Assembly: GCA_963722305.1 (NCBI GenBank)
Contig: CAVRKE010000001.1
Span: 181,529 to 245,528 of the forward strand
Source of the DNA: Candidatus Levyibacteriota bacterium
GTDB taxonomy: Bacteria > Patescibacteriota > Microgenomatia > Levybacterales > UBA12049
Direction: 5' to 3'
Length of the DNA: 64,000 nucleotides
Translations under genes and position numbers: made by a program
Shown here: positions 2,525-62,020 of the stretch, piece by piece
Layout: the number at the start of each line of letters is the position of its first letter
Position numbering within the stretch: position 1 is the stretch's first letter
The notes under the pieces: model-generated
What the model was told of the DNA's origin: nothing
Databases searched by the model: none
The model's input: only the letters and a program-made list of their open reading frames with translations

Positions 2525-3046
2525 ATGGAACTGATTGAGGTTTTAAAAAAAAGAAGATCTGTCAGAAAATATTTAGATAAGGATGTCCCTGCTGCATTGA
2601 TAAGGGAAATTATTGAACAAGCTAATTTGGCTCCATCGGCCGGCAACATTCAGGCGCGCAGTGTGGTAATTGTGAAAGACCAATTTATAATTGAAAAAAT
2701 AAGAAGTGTTGCGAAAGGTTTTAGTCGCTTTGAAGGGAAAATTCCCGTAATTTTAATTATTTTGGCAAAGCTTGATGAATCTGCCCAAAGGTACGCGGAA
2801 CGTGGCCGAAGTCTTTATGCATTACAAGACGCAACAATCTTTGCGGCCTATCTTCAGTTGGTCGCAACAGAAAAAGGTTTGTCAACAGGTTGGGTAGGCA
2901 ATCTCGATGAAAAAAAATTGGCAAAAATCGTAGATCTTTCAAAAGAGGTCTTACCAGTAGCGATAATTCCTTTGGGATATGCTACGCTTGAACCAAGCGT
3001 AAGAGAAAGAAAAAGCTTAAACGAAATTATCCTCAAACAGATATAA
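2525..3046 (+). CDS. nitroreductase-family protein
   Basis: The RRSVRKY motif opens a nitroreductase fold. The start is moved to an internal ATG (MELIEVLKKRRSVRKY) to avoid overlap with the upstream gene. Confidence 0.65.
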   Translation: MELIEVLKKRRSVRKYLDKDVPAALIREIIEQANLAPSAGNIQARSVVIVKDQFIIEKIRSVAKGFSRFEGKIPVILIILAKLDESAQRYAERGRSLYALQDATIFAAYLQLVATEKGLSTGWVGNLDEKKLAKIVDLSKEVLPVAIIPLGYATLEPSVRERKSLNEIILKQI

Positions 3047-22256: not shown

Positions 22257-22334
22257 AAGTGGATTATAATTACGAGTGTAAGAATTGTCAACTATGGGAC
22301 TTAGTACCGCGTGCGCACTTTATCAAGTACGTCG

Positions 22335-22380
22335 CTCCGATGAGCTCCGGGAGTCGAACCCACGATCTTCTCAGGATTCT
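22335..22380 (-). pseudogene. degenerate tRNA fragment (T-arm region identical over 18 nt to tRNA-Glu at 27582-27655)
   Basis: The minus strand reads ATCGTGGGTTCGACTCCC, identical to the tRNA-Glu T-arm. The T-stem 3' strand is mutated (CCCGG instead of CCCAC) and there is no intact acceptor or 5' half. Confidence 0.4.
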
Positions 22381-22434
22381 CCTACCATTCCGATAAGAAA
22401 CTTTTTCAAAGCAAAAAGCCAATGGGATTTTTCA

Positions 22435-22545
22435 GTGAGCTATATGGTTCCAGCCTGGAACCCCTGTTTAAAAGTCTCACAAAAATATACTTTAAATTAC
22501 TTGAACTAGGCTTAGTATATCATGAAAAGGAGGTAAAATGAACCC
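22435..22545 (+). repeat. 111-bp repeat, copy 1: promoter/RBS/start-codon cassette with the internal palindrome GGTTCCAG-N-CTGGAACC; an inverted copy lies at 45691-45802
   Basis: About 95% identical to the reverse complement of 45691-45802. Contains TTTAAA-16nt-TAGTAT, GGAGG and ATGAACCC, the start of the PLD-like gene. Confidence 0.85.
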
Positions 22546-22987
22546 TTTCCCCTCATCAAGGTTATATGACGAAAAGACGTTTTACCAAGCCTTCTTAAGA
22601 GACCTAGAGGGTTGTAGGAGTGAGGTAATCATCGAAAGCCCGTATATTACCAGTAAAAGAGCTGAAATGTTAATTCCTATATTCGACGACCTTTTAACTA
22701 AAGGTGTCAAAATCTATGTCATTACCAGGGATCCTCAAGAACATGAGGAAAATATGGAATATCAGTCCGAAGAGGCTATATCGTTATTTGAACATATGGG
22801 AATACAAGTCTTACTTTGTATTGGCAATCATCACCGAAAACTGGCCATATTAGACAGAAAAATACTTTGGGAAGGAAGTTTAAATATTCTTTCGCAGAAT
22901 CACAGTCGGGAAATAATGAGAAGGATTGAGAGCAAACAGTTGGCAATAGAGATGTTTGAGTTTTTGAGACTTTATAGATTTATATAG
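22538..22987 (+). CDS. phospholipase D (HKD) superfamily nuclease-like protein
   Basis: 149 aa with a single HxK(x)4D motif (NHHRKLAILD) plus the downstream GSxN (EGSLNI), typical of small Nuc-type PLD nucleases that act as dimers. Confidence 0.65.
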   Translation: MNPFPSSRLYDEKTFYQAFLRDLEGCRSEVIIESPYITSKRAEMLIPIFDDLLTKGVKIYVITRDPQEHEENMEYQSEEAISLFEHMGIQVLLCIGNHHRKLAILDRKILWEGSLNILSQNHSREIMRRIESKQLAIEMFEFLRLYRFI

Positions 22988-23003
22988 GAACTCAAGATGT
23001 ACG

Positions 23004-26423: not shown

Positions 26424-26496
26424 AAGGTTATACTAACAACTTAAAGTACTTTAAGTCAAGTACTCAATACACTCTAACTTTTTTATAATGTCTCAT

Positions 26497-26540
26497 TATT
26501 GGGTTCGAATCCCAAACGGCGTGAGGCTAGAAATATAGGA
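26497..26540 (+). repeat. tRNA-3'-end-like fragment (TTGGG-TTCGAAT-CCCAA-ACGGCGTG plus 18 nt); an inverted near-identical copy lies at 43171-43211
   Basis: About 39 of 41 nt identical to the reverse complement of 43171-43211. It contains a perfect T-arm but has no tRNA 5' half upstream. Confidence 0.8.
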
Positions 26541-26617
26541 TGCGATAGGATTTTAAGGCAATATCTGGAACTTGTTTTAGCTTCAATTCTGAGGATAATA
26601 CCAAGATGCGTAAAAAG

Positions 26618-26689
26618 TGAGCCGGGTGGGATTCGAACCCACGACCAAGAGCTTAAAAGGCTCCTGCTCTACCGCTGAGCTACCGGCCC
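26618..26689 (-). tRNA. tRNA-Lys (anticodon TTT)
   Basis: Hand-folded cloverleaf: acceptor GGGCCGG/CCGGCTC with one G-U pair, D-arm GCTC-AGCGGTA-GAGC, anticodon loop CTTTTAA, T-arm GTGGG-TTCGAAT-CCCAC, discriminator A. Confidence 0.8.
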
Positions 26690-41071: not shown

Positions 41072-42670
41072 TTACCTAACGTTCGGACTTTCAAACTTTA
41101 CCCTAGGAATAACAAGATGTATTGTTTCTTTGGTTTTGGGATTTGTGTACTCAACTATTTCAAGTATCTTCTTTGCATCTTTTGCGTAGCCGTTAATGAG
41201 CGCGTCCATATCCCAAATTCTAATTAGAACCTTTCCACTGGATGGCATAGTATCCAAAGCCTGCTGTAATCCATATTGAAAATTATGAATTCCAAAATTT
41301 GGATTTTTCCATCCCTTGCCCTGAAGCTCCGTGTACTCAACCCCGATACCATATTTCTTTCTAAATTCATCAACTTTTGCAAATTTTCCACCAATGGGAG
41401 CAAACATTCCGAACGGGCTAAGTATTTCATCCCAGGTCTCCGGCCCCATTTGCCCAACTACGGGAGCATTCAACAAATCAGCTTTACCAACCAGTGTATT
41501 TACTGAAGCAATGTCCGTATAAATGTCCCAACCAAAAATAAGTTTCTTTGGATCTACGCCTTCGTTTATCAACTCTTCAAACAAATTCAAAACTGCATCA
41601 ACGTTAAGAGGACCGGCGGAATTTACTAATACCTTTGCGTTAGGGAATGTTTCCATTCCTTGGTATATCAATTCTTTCATATACTCCTTATCTATTGTCC
41701 AACCACGGTTCCCAAAGCTTTGGAACGGTTCGTTTTCTGGCTGGATAATTTTTATTGCGTTTAATTGTTCCTGAGTATAATTTTGCTTCAAATAACTAAA
41801 TAGTTTTTTAGTGTAATCGATTCCGGCTTTTGCTAATGCACTGTCTTTTGTAATAACACCGCCGTCAGGCGGAACATCAACGCTTTCCAGTACTTCATCC
41901 GGTTGAAAAGTCTCGGGATTATTCGGATTTTTATCTGGACCGTAAGCTAAAGCAATATTAATATTATTGGCAATCATGTAATCGAAAAACGGTTTGTAAT
42001 AACCGAAGTCTATATTTCCGTTTGCATCAACTGCATTTTGCCAACGAATTCCAATACGAATATCGTTGAAGTTATATTGCTCATGCATTTTCCGCAGCAT
42101 TACCATTGCTTTTTCCGGAGTTGCGAATATTTCCGGAATGAAGGTCGTACCGAAATCTACTCTAGAAAGAGCTTCCTGGTTTTCCTTTATGAAATCCTGC
42201 GTAAAAAGTTGCGATGTCCTCAGCTCCTGACTGTTCTTATCTAAGGCCGGTTTTACAATACCAAATGTATAAGTAAGCGCCAAGCCGACGCTGGCAAGTG
42301 TCGCAATAACTTTTTTCGTTTTTAACTTATTTTTAAGGAATTCGACTACTGTGTTTACTTTTGTTTCAAAAACGTTATTATCGATGCTTTTGTCTGCAAC
42401 ATATAGAACTTCTTCTCCCGCCTCCCAGGGTATCGGTTTTTCCCGTAGATCTTGTTGGGGATTAGATGGCAATTCCACAATAACAACTTCCGAAAAATCG
42501 CCTGCTATCCGCGCCAAAGCTGCTTCTCCAGTTTGGCCAAAAGAAACGTCCGAACTGTTACGCCAACGAAAAGGAAATATTCTTGCGGATGGCGTTTCCG
42601 AAACGTTTTTTCTCGGCCCAGCATACAGATGGTGTTGGTTAAACCGGGGTAGACGAATTATGTTTGGCAA
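41072..42670 (-). CDS. clan GH-A glycoside-hydrolase-like protein with an N-terminal membrane anchor (paralogue-like to the gene at 14351-15523)
   Basis: ENEP acid/base-like motif (IIQPENEPFQSFGNRGW) and an N-terminal hydrophobic anchor (KKVIATLASVGLALTYTF). The annotated N-terminus is probably over-extended. Confidence 0.4.
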   Translation of the reverse strand: MPNIIRLPRFNQHHLYAGPRKNVSETPSARIFPFRWRNSSDVSFGQTGEAALARIAGDFSEVVIVELPSNPQQDLREKPIPWEAGEEVLYVADKSIDNNVFETKVNTVVEFLKNKLKTKKVIATLASVGLALTYTFGIVKPALDKNSQELRTSQLFTQDFIKENQEALSRVDFGTTFIPEIFATPEKAMVMLRKMHEQYNFNDIRIGIRWQNAVDANGNIDFGYYKPFFDYMIANNINIALAYGPDKNPNNPETFQPDEVLESVDVPPDGGVITKDSALAKAGIDYTKKLFSYLKQNYTQEQLNAIKIIQPENEPFQSFGNRGWTIDKEYMKELIYQGMETFPNAKVLVNSAGPLNVDAVLNLFEELINEGVDPKKLIFGWDIYTDIASVNTLVGKADLLNAPVVGQMGPETWDEILSPFGMFAPIGGKFAKVDEFRKKYGIGVEYTELQGKGWKNPNFGIHNFQYGLQQALDTMPSSGKVLIRIWDMDALINGYAKDAKKILEIVEYTNPKTKETIHLVIPRVKFESPNVR

Positions 42671-42829
42671 TTCTCCTTTTCCATGTACCCAGGGGACTTG
42701 TCTTCCTGCCCGTCTTTCCGCTGCTACTAGATTATTCCTCCCCGCAAAACCAATAAGTTCTTATGTTTACACATAACGTTTTGGGCAAGATAATTCGATT
42801 GGGGCAACAAATATAACCATTGGCTTTTG

Positions 42830-42903
42830 CACGCCTGAGAGGACTCGAACCCCCAACCCCTTCGTCCGAAGCGAAGTGCTCTATCCAATTGAGCTACAGG
42901 CGC
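42830..42903 (-). tRNA. tRNA-Arg (anticodon TCG)
   Basis: Hand-folded: acceptor GCGCCTG/CAGGCGT, D-arm GCTC-AATTGGATA-GAGC, anticodon stem CTTCG/CGAAG with loop CTTCGGA, T-loop TTCGAGT. The T-stem uses G-U pairs. Confidence 0.7.
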
Positions 42904-43058
42904 ATGCTGTTAGTATACTAAATTTATAATTGTTTATAAAGTTCGGTAGAAGATTTTTAAAAAGTAGGATATAATATGGTATCAATGATTTTGCAATTGC
43001 AAAGCTTGTGTGCGGGCCCGCCCGACACGCAAGACGAGCTTGTGAAGTCGTTGCGGGC

Positions 43059-43131
43059 GGGCCGCTAGCTCAACTGGCAGAGCAATTCCCTCTTAAGGAA
43101 TAGGTTCAGGGTTCGACTCCCTGGCGGCTCA
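43059..43131 (+). tRNA. tRNA-Lys (anticodon CTT)
   Basis: Hand-folded: acceptor GGGCCGC/GCGGCTC, D-arm GCTC-AACTGGCA-GAGC, anticodon stem ATTCC/GGAAT with loop CTCTTAA, T-arm CAGGG-TTCGACT-CCCTG. Confidence 0.8.
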
Positions 43132-43170
43132 CTAATTTTACCATCGTTAATTTAGCCTCGAATTGTAGCA

Positions 43171-43211
43171 AATTTATCCTATATTTCTAGCCTCACGCCG
43201 TCTGGGATTCG
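43171..43211 (-). repeat. inverted copy of the tRNA-3'-end-like repeat found at 26497-26540
   Basis: The reverse complement reads GTTCGAATCCCAGACGGCGTGAGGCTAGAAATATAGGAT, about 39 of 41 identical to the copy at 26.5 kb. It lies 40 bp downstream of tRNA-Lys-CTT. Confidence 0.8.
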
Positions 43212-43274
43212 AACACACCAAAGATATGCCCTATAGTTTGACAATACTGCACATTATGTGATAAAATTTGTCAT

Positions 43275-44228
43275 ATGTTAAATCAATCACCTGAAGGATA
43301 TAGACAAGGAATTCCAATAGAAACACCTGGTTTTAGCGGAGATGCTTCTTCGCATACAGATGGTGTTGTAACCAGAATTAATCGTAGAGATTATATGCCT
43401 GGATTTTTAGAAACTACCCCAGTCACAATAATTCAACATAATCCTAATGGACAACTTGTTTTTAGCACAGAATATGATAAACGGCAGCTTACGCCCGAAG
43501 AAAATATGGCAATTGATGAACAACTTAAAGGTCCTGATACCATAGTTGAGATACTTCCTGACGGTGAAATTAGCATAGATCGCGGTTCAGCTCTTGAAAA
43601 TGGGTCACCAGCTTGGTTCACTCAGTGTAAAGAATTAGGTGTTAAAAGAGCCTTAAAAGAAGCAGCAGTTTTAGAAGCATTAACTGGATTCCAGAACGTA
43701 TTTTGGGGACCACATATTGGAAAAATAACTCCAATTATGGTCGTAGATCCTGATTCTGGTATTGAATATCAGACAGGCATCAGATTAAGTCATGATTTTC
43801 CTTGGACTACTACTGAAAAAAGAAAATTTAGAAGACCGAAAGCTATTCCGATTGTGGGCAAAAATGTTGTAGACATTACCTATAAAGCAACTGAAGCTAC
43901 TAAAGATTCAGGAGTTTTAGATACTGGTAACATATATTATCGTGAGAAATCAGCTGTAATAAGTATTCTTGCATTTCTTGATCCAAATGAACTTGAAGGT
44001 ATAGAAAATCCAACCACTTATAACCCTGATGATTTAAGATTTTTAAGTAAATTAGGAATTGGTTTAAATTTAGCTTTTGATCCGCAGCGTTTTAAACCGG
44101 ATAAAGATTTGACCTTAAAAATAGATGGAATTTTACAACGATTCGGAGATTTTACCGTATCACTGGGAACAAATGCTCCGCAACTAATCGAAAGGGGAAC
44201 AGAAAGAGCTAAAACATCTGTTAAGTAA
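43275..44228 (+). CDS. hypothetical protein
   Basis: 317-aa ORF with no recognisable motif, immediately upstream of the Fic gene. Confidence 0.3.
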   Translation: MLNQSPEGYRQGIPIETPGFSGDASSHTDGVVTRINRRDYMPGFLETTPVTIIQHNPNGQLVFSTEYDKRQLTPEENMAIDEQLKGPDTIVEILPDGEISIDRGSALENGSPAWFTQCKELGVKRALKEAAVLEALTGFQNVFWGPHIGKITPIMVVDPDSGIEYQTGIRLSHDFPWTTTEKRKFRRPKAIPIVGKNVVDITYKATEATKDSGVLDTGNIYYREKSAVISILAFLDPNELEGIENPTTYNPDDLRFLSKLGIGLNLAFDPQRFKPDKDLTLKIDGILQRFGDFTVSLGTNAPQLIERGTERAKTSVK

Positions 44229-44455
44229 TTAAAATTTTTGTAACTAACCTATAAAAAGCTTTTTAATTTAAGAAAATCAAACATTTCCAGAGCCACTGTT
44301 TCGTTTTCAATCCTTCTCATAATCTCCCGGCTTTTGTTTTGAGAGAAGATATTTAAACTTCCTTCCCAAAGGAATTGACTTTCTCATAGCTTTTTGCTAA
44401 ACTAGATTTAGACTAATTATTAGACCAATAGCTAGACTAATAATAGACTGATTTT

Positions 44456-45664
44456 ATGAACAAAATAGCTTCAAAACCATTCGCACACACTTTTTTATCA
44501 CAGTTTGTTCTTATACAAAAGCTGCTGCCTTTTTCTGATGATGAAATCAAAAATATAGATGCAGAACTGGCAGAGTATGAACAAGTATTCTTAAATCCGG
44601 ATATAGAGAAGAACTTGATTAGCAGAAATGAGCTTTTAGCTTCTTTTGCTATCTCTAAAGCGGAAAACTCAACCCTAACGCTTCAAGAGGCGCAAGATGT
44701 TTATAACTTACTGCTTACAAATGAAGAGTACACTTTTATTTCGGATAAACTTAAAAAAAAAGAAAAATTAACGCAGAAAGATTATGACAAGCTGGAGTTT
44801 TATAATATCGCCAAAACTTTTCGTAGTCTTAATGAAACACCGTTTAGTATCGATAATATCACGGCTGACGACATACGCAGACTCCACCAAAGCTTAAGCC
44901 TTGGATTAGATGTGTTTGAAAAGTATTTACTTGATTTTACTGTTTATAAATCCGGTAAGTTTCGCGATAATGATACGATTAGAGTTGGCAGCTATATACC
45001 GGCTCCTTTTGAAGCGATAGAGAAAGGAGTTGAAGAGCTTCTTTTGTATCTTAAAACCAACAAAACCATTACCGGAGTGGCTGTTTTTCATACTGGTCTT
45101 TATGCTCTTCATCCATTTAACAATGGGAATAAGCGAGTTTGTCGAATCTTAGAACACATTTTCTTTCGGGATCTTGGTTTAAATCAGAAAAATCTTTACA
45201 GTACTTCATATTATTACCATAAGCAAAAACAAAGGTATTATAAATACTTACTCTATTCCCTTGAGCGAAGAAATCTAAACCATTTTGTTTCCTTTGTCCA
45301 AGAAGCGCTTGTATTGTCTATGATTGGAGTTTTAAAATTAAGTCTTTCAGCAAAACGAAGTGAATTTTTAAGTAATCAAACAAGCGATGAGCAAATACGT
45401 CTTGTTTTAAAATCTTTGATTAAAAGACGTGAATTACAGTTTAAAAACCTGTTTGTAGCAGTCAGGGGTAAAATGGCCAGACAAACTTTTGTAAATCAGT
45501 TACAAAAAGCCACAGATGAAAAGATTATTCTAAAACGTGAAGCAGGACGAACTACCTATTATTGTCTTAATTTTAATACGCCCGAGGAAGAAGCACTGAA
45601 TAGATGGCTTACTTTTGCCAAGAAGAAACTATCCTACATACCCGATGAGATAAAATTGTTATAG
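44456..45664 (+). CDS. Fic/Doc-family protein with a variant active-site motif
   Basis: HPFNNGNKRVCR matches the Fic core HPFx(D/E)GNGRxxR except for N at the D/E position and K at the second G. The C-terminus looks like a winged helix. Confidence 0.7.
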   Translation: MNKIASKPFAHTFLSQFVLIQKLLPFSDDEIKNIDAELAEYEQVFLNPDIEKNLISRNELLASFAISKAENSTLTLQEAQDVYNLLLTNEEYTFISDKLKKKEKLTQKDYDKLEFYNIAKTFRSLNETPFSIDNITADDIRRLHQSLSLGLDVFEKYLLDFTVYKSGKFRDNDTIRVGSYIPAPFEAIEKGVEELLLYLKTNKTITGVAVFHTGLYALHPFNNGNKRVCRILEHIFFRDLGLNQKNLYSTSYYYHKQKQRYYKYLLYSLERRNLNHFVSFVQEALVLSMIGVLKLSLSAKRSEFLSNQTSDEQIRLVLKSLIKRRELQFKNLFVAVRGKMARQTFVNQLQKATDEKIILKREAGRTTYYCLNFNTPEEEALNRWLTFAKKKLSYIPDEIKLL

Positions 45665-45690
45665 TATATATCTCATATTCGTATTTTTTA

Positions 45691-45802
45691 GGGTTCATTT
45701 TGCCTCCTTTTCATGATATACTAAGCCTAGTTCAAGTAATTTAAGATACGTTTTTGTGAGACTTTCAAATAGGGGTTCCAGGCTGGAACCATATAGCTCA
45801 CT
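45691..45802 (-). repeat. 111-bp repeat, copy 2 (inverted copy of 22435-22545), oriented to fire antisense into the 3' end of the Fic gene
   Basis: The reverse complement is about 95% identical to copy 1 and includes the palindrome GGTTCCAGNCTGGAACC, the promoter hexamers, GGAGG and ATGAACCC. The downstream minus-strand ORF is only 13 codons. Confidence 0.85.
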
Positions 45803-45807
45803 ATTTT

Positions 45808-46050
45808 ATGAAGCAAAAGTTTGACAAGGCAACACAAGTTCTACTTCCAACCCTAACTGCCACCGGATTTTTAATCACCAGTCTCAAACGGCCGGACATT
45901 GGGTTGACTGTTAGTCTTGTTTCACAAATATTCTGGATGTATACCAGTTGGCAAGCCTGGAAAAAAGCCGGACAAATTGGAATATTTATCTCCTCCATAA
46001 TCGTTACGGTCATTTTACTCTTCGGGGTTATTAACTACTGGTTCCTCTAA
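45808..46050 (+). CDS. hypothetical small membrane protein
   Basis: 80 aa with two predicted TM helices. It starts 6 nt after repeat copy 2. Confidence 0.25.
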   Translation: MKQKFDKATQVLLPTLTATGFLITSLKRPDIGLTVSLVSQIFWMYTSWQAWKKAGQIGIFISSIIVTVILLFGVINYWFL

Positions 46051-46062
46051 AAATCACTAAGG

Positions 46063-46917
46063 TTAGGCAATTTTATTTAGGTCAATTTTAATATCCGTAG
46101 CGGGATAAAATAAACATTGCCTTGCCACAGCGTTTGCAAACTTTCCTGCCTCTTTTAAATTTCCAGTTTTCTTATATTTATAAATGAATGCGGCGCTAAA
46201 AATCTCCCCTGAACCAACCGAATCAATTACCTTATTCTCCGGAACCGGAATTGTCGGCAACATAATTTCTTTGCCACCCTTAAAAGCCATTGCTCCTTTT
46301 TCTCCAAGCGTTACAATCGGAATTACATCTGTATCCAGTGACCATTTTTTTGCCTGGGCAAGCATTGTTGAAGAATCACGCTGAGAAACAATTACAATAT
46401 CCAACAAAGGCAGTATTCCTTTTGCTTCTACAAATTTCCTGACTAAAACATTATTCTTGGAATCAAATTTTCTGTAAAACCCTTGCGGAAGAATAACTGT
46501 TAAAGCTCCCTTCTTTAAATTTGCAACAACTGATTTAATATATTCTTTATTATAAATCGGTAGCAGGGGAGCAAAAAAAACAATGTCAGTCTGGCGTAAA
46601 ATAGCTATCATAGAGCTGTCTAGCTCGACTGAGAAAGCTTTGTCCCGGTTGTAAGCTTTCTGTGTCCTAACGCCGGGCTTGGAAACATTTTCGTAAACTA
46701 ACGTTTTTTCGGTATTTGGTTGAGGAGGAAAAATATTAAAGTCTGCTACGTATTGAACAAAATCCGCTCCGTAAGAGGAAATGACATTTACATCGCAATC
46801 ACTAAATTGTTTAAAAACTTTATTTAAAAATATAGCCGGACTTCCAGCCGAAATGTAAGCGGAATGTTCCGAAACGTTCTTATCGATACAAACCGTGGTA
46901 ATAATGCAAATATTCAC
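46063..46917 (-). CDS. PfkB-family carbohydrate kinase
   Basis: C-terminal anion-hole/ATP motif (VGSGEIFSAAF) in a ribokinase-like fold. 284 aa. Confidence 0.55.
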   Translation of the reverse strand: MNICIITTVCIDKNVSEHSAYISAGSPAIFLNKVFKQFSDCDVNVISSYGADFVQYVADFNIFPPQPNTEKTLVYENVSKPGVRTQKAYNRDKAFSVELDSSMIAILRQTDIVFFAPLLPIYNKEYIKSVVANLKKGALTVILPQGFYRKFDSKNNVLVRKFVEAKGILPLLDIVIVSQRDSSTMLAQAKKWSLDTDVIPIVTLGEKGAMAFKGGKEIMLPTIPVPENKVIDSVGSGEIFSAAFIYKYKKTGNLKEAGKFANAVARQCLFYPATDIKIDLNKIA

Positions 46918-47027
46918 TTAAACATTATAACAAACTAATTATTATCCTACATCGAACATCTCGACACCCCAAAACGTTCGGACTTCCCCTATTTACATCG
47001 ATTACATTATTTTAGTAGTATAGTTAT

Positions 47028-61624: not shown

Positions 61625-62020
61625 TTGAAAAGCAAAAAAATGTGGAGTAATATGAATAACATGGATGATACAAAATTGTTGGGAAAAATTGGCATATTAA
61701 TTGACGAAAAGCTTCTACCCCTTAAGAAACAACTTGATACTGTAGAAACAAAAGTGGGGGCTCTAGATGAAAAAGTGGGGGCTCTAGATGAAAAAGTGGG
61801 GGCTCTAGATGAAAAAGTGGGGGCTCTAGATGAAAAAGTGGGGGCTCTAGATGAAAAAGTTGAGTCATTGGATAGAAAAATTGAAATTGTAAACAACAAA
61901 ATTGATAAAGCGCAAGAAGAAACGATTGATACCCTTTCCGAACTAATTGCATCCGGATATAATAACCATGAACGAAGAATTAAAAGAATAGAAAATCACT
62001 TAGAACTTCCCCAAATTTAA
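61625..62020 (+). CDS. small coiled-coil protein containing a perfect heptad (VGALDEK) tandem repeat
   Basis: 131 aa with heptad periodicity throughout (LDTVETK, VGALDEK x5, VESLDRK, IEIVNNK). Confidence 0.4.
   Translation: MKSKKMWSNMNNMDDTKLLGKIGILIDEKLLPLKKQLDTVETKVGALDEKVGALDEKVGALDEKVGALDEKVGALDEKVESLDRKIEIVNNKIDKAQEETIDTLSELIASGYNNHERRIKRIENHLELPQI
61751..61876 (+). repeat. 21-bp tandem repeat (AAAGTGGGGGCTCTAGATGAA): 5 perfect copies plus 1 degenerate, in-frame within a coding region
   Basis: Read directly. Each unit carries an XbaI-like TCTAGA. Confidence 0.9.

Follow-up and report, generated by a model that had tools for sequence, protein, structure and literature searches.

We analysed a gene for a Fic-domain protein that lies within a 64,000-nucleotide (nt) stretch of genomic DNA from a Candidatus Levyibacteriota bacterium (assembly GCA_963722305.1, contig CAVRKE010000001.1, positions 181,529 to 245,528 of the forward strand). 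This whole 64-kb stretch is called the window, and positions are counted from its first letter. The gene was called on the window as an intact open reading frame (ORF) of 402 amino acids (aa). A first-pass annotation had taken the product for a Fic-domain protein, and this is confirmed by the Pfam Fic/DOC profile PF02661, which matches residues 135-236 with 55.3 bits (curated cut-off 24). The protein is laid out as follows.

44456..45664, plus strand: Fic protein of 402 aa with a winged helix-turn-helix (wHTH), comprising an N-terminal helix (residues 28-39), the inhibitory helix (alpha-inh), the Fic core with its flap, the catalytic loop and the wHTH
44651..44668, plus strand: inhibitory-helix motif I66-S-K-A-E70-N71 (the E70 codon GAA is 44663-44665)
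45110..45145, plus strand: catalytic loop H219-P-F-N-N223-G-N-K226-R227-V-C-R230, residues 219-230, aligned to FICD
45383..45580, plus strand: C-terminal wHTH, about residues 310-375, three helices and then a beta-hairpin wing

An AlphaFold2 model of the protein was built from 54 family members and has a mean predicted local distance difference test score (pLDDT) of 85.8 and a predicted template modelling score (pTM) of 0.85. The model has the all-alpha core of the Fic fold, with the catalytic His opening the loop between helices alpha4 and alpha5, and both alignment and model place a beta-hairpin flap at about residues 176-181, its strand pair at about 177-180, where the FICD flap aligns. According to the model and a fold search, the C-terminal ∼ 65 residues match repressors of the ArsR, MarR, Fur and MecI types. 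The fold search with the Fic model retrieved class I and class III Fic proteins with scores of ∼ 12-13 and AnkX with 10.2; Doc was absent from the top 60 matches. In the PDB, the family profile matched FICD and SoFic and no Doc entry.

The architecture, a Fic domain followed by a C-terminal winged helix, is that of SoFic. The PADLOC SoFic model PDLC03963 aligns residues 30-370 to profile positions 28-350 of 361 (90.7 bits), and the AlphaFold2 model and the fold matches agree with it. The same domain order and fold occur in SoFic of Shewanella oneidensis (SO_4266/MloA, a single-gene defence system in PADLOC and DefenseFinder), CccR of Yersinia and CbFic2 of Coxiella. The inhibitory Glu is E73 in SoFic and E70 in the window protein, and SoFic, like the window gene, is a single gene without an obligatory partner. 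However, the two proteins are only about 15-16% identical, and the window protein scores 34.2 bits with the SoFic equivalog NCBIfam NF046030, for which the cut-off is 550. The SoFic loop reads (D/E)GNGR..R, whereas every member of the clade to which the window protein belongs has NGNKR..R; the clade also has a ∼ 20-residue insertion behind alpha-inh, and the chemistry is predicted to differ. No model dedicated to this NGNKR clade turned up in the Pfam and NCBIfam scans; PHROG 5978, a family of unknown function, scores the protein at 63.7 bits. Judged by sequence and by the model, the window protein is a class II Fic protein that resembles SoFic, CccR and CbFic2 in sequence, fold and domain order.

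For the Fic core, FICD/HYPE is the best match by sequence (profile E value 3e-9), and it has the same flap. Its alpha-inh reads TVAIEGNTLTL where the window protein has AISKAENSTLTL (I66-S-K-A-E70-N71-S-T-L-T-L). FICD differs in its DGNGR loop, its tetratricopeptide-repeat and transmembrane parts, its lack of a wHTH and its role as a BiP AMPylase/deAMPylase resident in the endoplasmic reticulum. With Doc, the window protein shares the nine-residue loop signature, including the Asn-5 sub-variant described in the Doc clade. Doc, however, consists of one domain of ∼ 125 aa, its six-helix core incomplete, and has no flap, no Arg12 and a separate Phd antitoxin, whereas the window protein, at 402 aa, combines a flap, a wHTH, Arg12 and an intramolecular Glu and has no partner gene. 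The Doc profile TIGR01550 matches the loop helices only, with 17.5 bits (E = 0.0035, cut-off 38.65), and the match to PHROG 577 ('Doc-like toxin') is local to the same helices (E = 1.5e-4). We therefore rejected membership of the Doc family on the lack of a global sequence or structural match, the size, the flap and the TIGR01550 score below cut-off.

It had been noted earlier that no partner gene with an inhibitory (S/T)xxxE(G/N) helix accompanies the Fic gene. There is indeed none, but the element itself was overlooked: it sits inside the protein as I66-S-K-A-E70-N71. Residues I66, S67, K68 and E70 are invariant in the alignment of the 54 family members. Twelve Lys-type members (those with the NGNKR loop) were then aligned with the 12 nearest canonical relatives. 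Ten columns of this 24-sequence alignment are invariant (M1, E70, H144, R170, H219, F221, G224, N225, R227 and R230), and the E70 column coincides with the Glu of canonical S(S/T)xIEG(N/T). Homology of alpha-inh rests on this alignment and on collinearity with the SoFic profile. Deeper clade members have Thr at the S/T position (TAKIEG, TAVAEG). Because E70 is invariant and aligned with the canonical alpha-inh Glu, the sequence places the protein in class II, with the inhibitory Glu in the same polypeptide. In canonical Fic proteins the gamma-phosphate takes the place of the inhibitory Glu and pairs with the second Arg (PMC3667792); both latch partners, Glu70 and Arg230, are kept in the clade.

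A hybrid catalytic loop

The loop HPFNNGNKRVCR aligns column for column with HPFIDGNGRTSR of human FICD (HMMER). Compared with canonical HxFx(D/E)GNGRxxR, Asn223 replaces the acidic residue at position 5 and Lys226 the second Gly at position 8, so that the signature of AMPylating Fic proteins is lost; His, Phe, Gly6, Asn7, Arg9 and Arg12 are all kept. Both substitutions had been pointed out in the first-pass annotation and hold up in the FICD alignment, which also speaks against a misassigned motif, as the loop is correctly placed and the protein has no second, canonical motif. We further agree with its statement that changes at these positions alter Fic chemistry. The stretch H-P-F-N-N-G-N-K-R fits the Doc consensus HxFx(D/N)(A/G)NKR, in which the Lys forces ATP into an inverted orientation, so that phosphate and not AMP is moved (reviewed in PMC4177925). 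Khater and Mohanty (PMC4454073) define the canonical Fic class by an Arg at position 12 that the Doc motif classes lack; in the window protein and its relatives this residue, R230, is invariant. Because the Doc consensus fits nine residues and Arg12 is a mark of canonical Fic proteins, the aligned loop is a hybrid: nine Doc residues, then the second Arg of canonical Fic.

A search through 5.8 billion proteins found 687 homologues, of which the best 120 have lengths of 398-406 aa and share 67-94% identity with the window protein; where a source is named, it belongs to the Patescibacteria (Levybacteria, Daviesbacteria). All 120 carry H-x-F-(N/H)-N-G-N-K-R-x-x-R. A HMMER scan of 1.84 billion cluster representatives gave 316 matches at E ≤ 1e-3, 36 of them at E ≤ 1e-30, and loop classes were counted in the 93 representatives with a readable loop among the best 150 of the 316. 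By residues at positions 5, 8 and 12, these comprise (N,K,R) in 42, (D/E,G,R) in 45 and (N,G,R) in six, with no mixed Lys classes. Every one of the first 39 motif-bearing matches, which reach down to about 26-30% identity, is Lys-type; the loops then switch abruptly to canonical ones. Clade members have a median length of 407 aa, compared with 347 aa in their canonical neighbours. We regard NGNKR..R as a selected clade character and not as decay. On these counts the clade appears to be centred on Patescibacteria, and its loop is always HxFxNGNKRxxR. Characterized Fic-wHTH proteins (SoFic, CccR, CbFic2) all have canonical loops, and characterized Lys-8 proteins are all minimal Doc toxins; no description of a clade combining the NGNKR loop with the SoFic scaffold was found in the searchable literature.

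The loop could also belong to a SoFic-type AMPylase/deAMPylase in which Lys and Asn only retune the metal or nucleotide preference (e.g. for metal-independent NMP transfer) and the nucleotide keeps its canonical orientation. The scaffold is SoFic-like over its full length, and FICD-type enzymes require the inhibitory Glu for deAMPylation. The nearest canonical relatives have Asn at position 5 together with Gly at position 8, as does 7xux (HPFGNGNGRTVR), the nearest PDB chain. Moreover, the retained flap, Asn225, Arg227, Arg230 and inhibitory Glu make up the triphosphate hold of the AMPylation mode (PMC3667792). On the other hand, wherever a position-8 Lys has been examined (Doc; PMC4177925), it inverts ATP and brings about kinase chemistry. 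The combination of Asn5 and Lys8 in 42 of 42 clade representatives, with the abrupt switch outside the clade, suggests that the phosphate and metal site changed in a coordinated way and not by neutral drift, and neither a characterized AMPylase nor any PDB chain has an NGNKR..R loop. We consider an AMPylase of this kind unlikely, though a serious contender.

Transfer of another phosphoryl-containing group in the inverted mode, such as phosphocholine from CDP-choline, as by AnkX, or from another NDP-X donor, seems quite improbable. AnkX does appear among the fold matches, but the window protein has neither the AnkX loop nor the extra CMP-binding domain nor ankyrin repeats, its loop matches Doc, and its neighbourhood gives no hint of a special donor.

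One Levybacteria assembly (GCA_030650175.1; locus L012 on JAUSEF010000041.1, 1015-6226, and locus L010) contains two Lys-type paralogues, whose identity with the window protein is 67% and 76%. A further two Fic-domain genes and a ParE toxin gene lie within 5 kb of one of them, a notable Fic gene load for so small a genome.

The leader and a proposed mechanism

The DNA between the Fic promoter and the start codon contains a regular array of short direct repeats.

44375..44403, plus strand: sigma-70-type promoter of the Fic gene, found by consensus scan (TTGACT, 17 nt, TAAACT, with TG before the -10 hexamer)
44409..44448, plus strand: candidate operator made of four direct TAGAC boxes (44409-44413, 44421-44425, 44433-44437, 44444-44448)

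The boxes start at -47, -35, -23 and -12 from the ATG, a phasing of 12, 12 and 11 nt, and the ATG has no Shine-Dalgarno sequence in front of it. No other cluster of at least three TAGAC within 40 nt occurs in the window. In eight independent genomic contexts the -35 hexamer and the promoter spacing are kept. The boxes are invariant in all eight, with variable spacers, down to 67% protein identity and including the two paralogues of one assembly. Clade members that are 42-44% identical have T(A/T)GACT boxes at 11-12-nt spacing. At locus L016 (38% identical) the region 2930-3000 holds three to four direct repeats of TTGCAGT(AATC), 11-12 nt apart with the fourth at 14 nt; a changed box sequence with kept phasing would be expected if a binding site evolved together with the protein that binds it. 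A structured leader or riboswitch was rejected (leader fold z = -0.98), and Rfam scans by gathering threshold and by E value returned tRNAs only and no family on the Fic leader.

Dimeric SoFic binds its own promoter within 100 bp upstream of the gene's start codon, and CccR autoregulates (bioRxiv 10.64898/2026.07.09.737422). The window gene has its conserved array at the same place. Since SoFic and CccR act on their own promoters and the repeats between the -10 hexamer and the ATG are conserved, autorepression through the C-terminal winged helix bound to the candidate TAGAC operator would, by analogy, be the most economical reading. The L016 member itself lies among many ankyrin-repeat genes, which suggests a host outside the Levybacteria/Daviesbacteria group.

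The array also bears on whether the protein is an enzyme at all. The Fic domain might only sense a nucleotide or other ligand, in which case the protein would be a pseudoenzyme and, by virtue of its winged helix, a transcription factor and nothing more. The loss of the Mg-binding acidic residue, the wHTH with its conserved operator-like array and the deposition of the SoFic structure 3eqx as a 'Fic domain containing transcriptional regulator' would fit such a role. However, His219, Asn225, Lys226, Arg227, Arg230, Glu70 and the flap-proximal Arg170 are invariant from 94% to about 20-30% identity, which is hard to explain without catalysis. Furthermore, the sole conserved candidate DNA target is the gene's own leader, and the gene resides in variable regions rich in toxin-antitoxin and defence genes. 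We judge a pure regulator improbable.

We propose instead, tentatively and with somewhat less than even confidence, that the gene encodes a stand-alone, self-regulating and autoinhibited class II Fic phosphotransferase, probably a kinase, that serves as a growth-arrest or defence toxin. By analogy with Doc, Lys226 would replace the second Gly of the anion nest, and the nucleotide would probably be inverted and phosphate transferred in place of AMP; loss of the Mg-binding carboxylate at Asn223 would fit an altered phosphate geometry. As in other class II Fic proteins, the Glu70-Arg230 pair would keep the enzyme latched and inactive pending a signal. The winged helix would bind the TAGAC boxes (from about +1) and repress transcription of its own gene, in the way that SoFic and CccR bind their own promoters. 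Once released, the enzyme would modify an essential protein and arrest growth, in a toxin or abortive-infection role. The leading candidate target is a translational GTPase such as EF-Tu, because both Doc (at T382) and SoFic (in switch I) hit EF-Tu. Our confidence is highest for autorepression and falls through the Glu70-Arg230 latch and phosphoryl transfer by the Lys226/Asn223 site to the essential-protein target. A bolder version would have the Doc kinase loop gained independently on a SoFic scaffold, giving an unrecognized clade of DNA-binding, self-inhibited Fic proteins that phosphorylate an essential GTPase and repress themselves through iteron-like repeats; we hold this to be possible rather than probable.

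Several observations weigh against the proposed kinase toxin. The flap, the second Arg and the inhibitory Glu, all absent from Doc, are present in the clade, and because these define a site competent for AMPylation or deAMPylation, an inverted nucleotide does not necessarily follow from Lys226. In the close family, Ile occupies the S/T position of (S/T)xxxE(G/N), the alpha-inh segment is a low-confidence coil in the AlphaFold2 model, and the N-terminal region alone gave no significant match in the PDB. Each TAGACT also looks like a -10 hexamer. A search of IMG/VR viral contigs with clade-specific peptide patterns found no relatives of the clade, and EF-Tu, or any other target, would be pure analogy.

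The Fic fold is a textbook case of several chemistries reached by small changes in one loop. The Lys-8 'kinase' loop is so far known only in minimal Doc toxins, and the clade sets it in a class II, flap-bearing, DNA-binding scaffold. Strict co-variation of N5, K8 and R12 thus offers a natural experiment on what separates AMP from phosphate transfer and on the role of an inhibitory Glu in a kinase-type site. The matter also affects annotation. By profile annotation SoFic is the second most common defence family in aquifer and groundwater genomes (PMC12259885). SoFic profiles catch the NGNKR clade, whose enzymes are probably mis-annotated as SoFic, and AMPylation or abortive infection may be wrongly inferred for candidate-phyla bacteria. 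On the bolder version, many of the 'SoFic defence systems' counted in genomes from groundwater and from candidate phyla, a sizeable share, would have another chemistry. With its conserved promoter and repeat array, the gene makes up a compact unit open to direct testing.

A mobile single-gene unit

BLAST comparison with five related loci shows homology starting at about 44363-44375 and ending at the Fic stop codon; the alignments contain nothing conserved downstream of it. A small downstream antitoxin such as AS1, known from the comparison system EcSofic, was rejected because conservation stops at the Fic stop codon, and no AS1-like gene is conserved in the clade. A Phd-type antitoxin gene does not adjoin the Fic gene either, the DNA upstream consisting of the promoter/operator and a remnant of a PLD-like gene. 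Among 11 other contexts the Fic gene has no conserved neighbour. The genes beside it are unrelated from one context to another and are often toxin-antitoxin or defence genes: glycosyltransferases with an RHH/PIN pair; AAA/Lon-lid; TrmO with more Fic genes and ParE; PIN/MazE and BrnT/CopG; AbiEii; BipA; and ankyrin-repeat genes.

One of the related loci, L003, is syntenic with the window. The same interval from RNase HII to the ABC transporter contains tRNA-Arg, tRNA-Lys, Fic and a PLD fragment in the same order, and this block is inverted in the window relative to L003. At four-fold degenerate sites the two Fic genes are 72% identical and the flanking genes 22-46%. The GC content of the Fic gene is 0.34 compared with 0.40 for the window. 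Because four-fold-site identity is far above that of the flanking genes and GC deviates, the Fic gene is, by these measures, one that was exchanged much more recently than the two genomes diverged. Sequence comparison across the contexts shows it to be a mobile single-gene unit, composed of promoter, boxes and ORF, without a conserved partner. No transposase, integrase or terminal repeats were noticed at the edges of the unit, although no search was aimed at them. A phage origin is not supported, given the negative IMG/VR result, despite the PHROG 5978 score.

Compared with L003, the interval between RNase HII and the ABC transporter (42700-47000 in the window) is a variable hot spot. The window has there a 532-aa protein of no family, an ORFan, an 80-aa membrane ORF and a PfkB kinase, and L003 a DUF1801 protein and an MFS transporter. 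The 532-aa ORF (41072-42670, minus strand), beside tRNA-Arg, gave no significant family in Pfam, NCBIfam or PADLOC, only sub-threshold FliP/EscR-like matches over one hydrophobic segment.

Surrounding elements

The first-pass annotation had joined the Fic gene to an upstream 317-aa ORF and to an inverted copy of a promoter cassette thought to overlap its 3′ end. The elements concerned are these.

43275..44228, plus strand: 317-aa ORFan, between tRNA-Lys and Fic and outside the Fic unit
44248..44388, minus strand: 3′ remnant of a PLD-like paralogue, its last ∼ 41 codons in frame with the stop; abuts the Fic promoter and is 73% complementary to 22848-22988
45690..45802, minus strand: 5′ remnant of the PLD-like paralogue, with upstream palindrome, leader, ribosome-binding site (RBS) AAGGAGG and ATG-AAC-CCT; points into the Fic 3′ end
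22434..22987, plus strand: intact reference copy, with leader, RBS and a 149-aa PLD-like (HKD) gene at 22538-22987 (Pfam PLDc_2, 44 bits)

An inverted second copy does exist. The 113-nt segment 45690-45802 is 94% complementary to 22434-22546, which makes exactly two copies in the window where none is expected by chance, and both share an identical 33-nt core that occurs nowhere else in the window. However, the copy begins 25 nt beyond the Fic stop codon and does not overlap the gene; only a vestigial 29-codon frame from its ATG enters the Fic 3′ end. Nor is it a free-standing promoter cassette: it is the beginning of a PLD-like gene, comprising leader, RBS and the first three codons, and a consensus scan found no sigma-70 promoter inside 45690-45802. 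The paralogue is broken after codon 3, and its 3′ remnant translates to LWEGSLNIFSQNKSREIMRRIENETVALEMFDFLKLKSFL followed by the stop codon, which was compared with the C-terminus of the intact PLD-like protein. The 1.3-kb Fic unit thus lies antisense inside the disrupted paralogue, in place of ∼ 300 bp. The PLD-like gene has similarity to MkoC and DrmC in PADLOC and 4,732 homologues, widespread in Patescibacteria. At L003 and L004 a different, weak PLD fragment (codons 13-32) directly follows the Fic stop codon, which hints that the association of PLD and Fic is older. Because the relatives have no homology downstream, the inverted copy is a genome-specific by-product of the position of the Fic unit within the disrupted paralogue. 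If active, antisense transcription from the 5′ remnant into the Fic 3′ end would be confined to this genome.

The 317-aa ORF was correctly called unannotatable, as Pfam, NCBIfam, PADLOC and PHROGs contain no family for it. Among the 5.8 billion proteins it matched only itself, on a 608-kb NCBI contig, and a single-sequence AlphaFold2 model was unusable (pLDDT 34). The suggested co-occurrence with the Fic gene is refuted, since the gene is missing from the syntenic L003 and from all ten other Fic contexts examined. At L003, ∼ 90 bp lie between the tRNA-Lys flank and the Fic unit, and the ORFan DNA is missing. Having no homologue elsewhere and being absent from L003, the 317-aa protein is no conserved partner, and we rejected it as a Fic partner. 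The ORF has its own strong, near-consensus promoter-like site (TTGACA, 18 nt, TAAAAT, with TG; 43238-43267, 11 of 12 matches) with a -10 hexamer that ends 8 nt before the ATG, so that its mRNA would be leaderless or nearly so.

A multi-part module, in which the Fic gene works with the 317-aa protein under the control of the antisense copy, is very improbable. The three do adjoin on the same DNA. The leader, RBS and ATG of the remnant are identical to those of the expressed paralogue, and since no terminator separates the remnant from Fic, antisense read-through could occur in this one genome. Against this, the 317-aa protein is without homologues while the Fic family has hundreds, L003 lacks the 317-aa gene, the relatives share no sequence past the Fic stop codon, and the cassette is a piece of a PLD-like gene that has been disrupted.

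The two PLD remnants differ in their similarity to the intact copy: the 5′ piece is 94% and the 3′ coding piece, although in frame, 73% similar, a contrast that suggests gene conversion, or that the 5′ piece was copied again recently or is under selection. With 23 kb between them and opposite orientations, the 113-nt copies could mediate an inversion. Upstream of the PLD-like RBS both contain a perfect 7-bp palindrome, GGTTCCA-GCC-TGGAACC, inside a GTGAG...CTCAC inverted repeat (45750-45790, minus strand; 22445-22485, plus strand; RNA fold -14.7 kcal/mol, z = -2.4). It could be an operator, or it could serve the upstream gene as a terminator. Immediately before the intact PLD-like gene, the minus strand of 22330-22400 (GGAGTCGAACCCACGATCTTC...) resembles a tRNA T-arm and acceptor; ARAGORN made no call there, and the stretch may be a further tRNA fragment that marks a hot spot of rearrangement.

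A 49-nt fragment resembling a tRNA 3′ half (TTGGGTTCGAATCCCAAACGGCGTGAGGC...) is found at 26493-26541 (plus strand) and 43176-43224 (minus strand), the two copies being 90% identical. They lie convergent to the two tRNA-Lys genes (ttt, 26617-26689, minus strand; ctt, 43059-43132, plus strand), about 50-100 nt downstream of each. The fragment is also conserved in L003 (5725-5828) and was called by neither ARAGORN nor Rfam; it could be the scar of an old integration (att) event or a small RNA that has escaped annotation. Finally, a tandem array of a 21-nt unit (CTCTAGATGAAAAAGTGGGGG) at 61719-61886 has about six to eight copies with up to 94-100% identity and presumably encodes a 7-residue repeat within a coding region.

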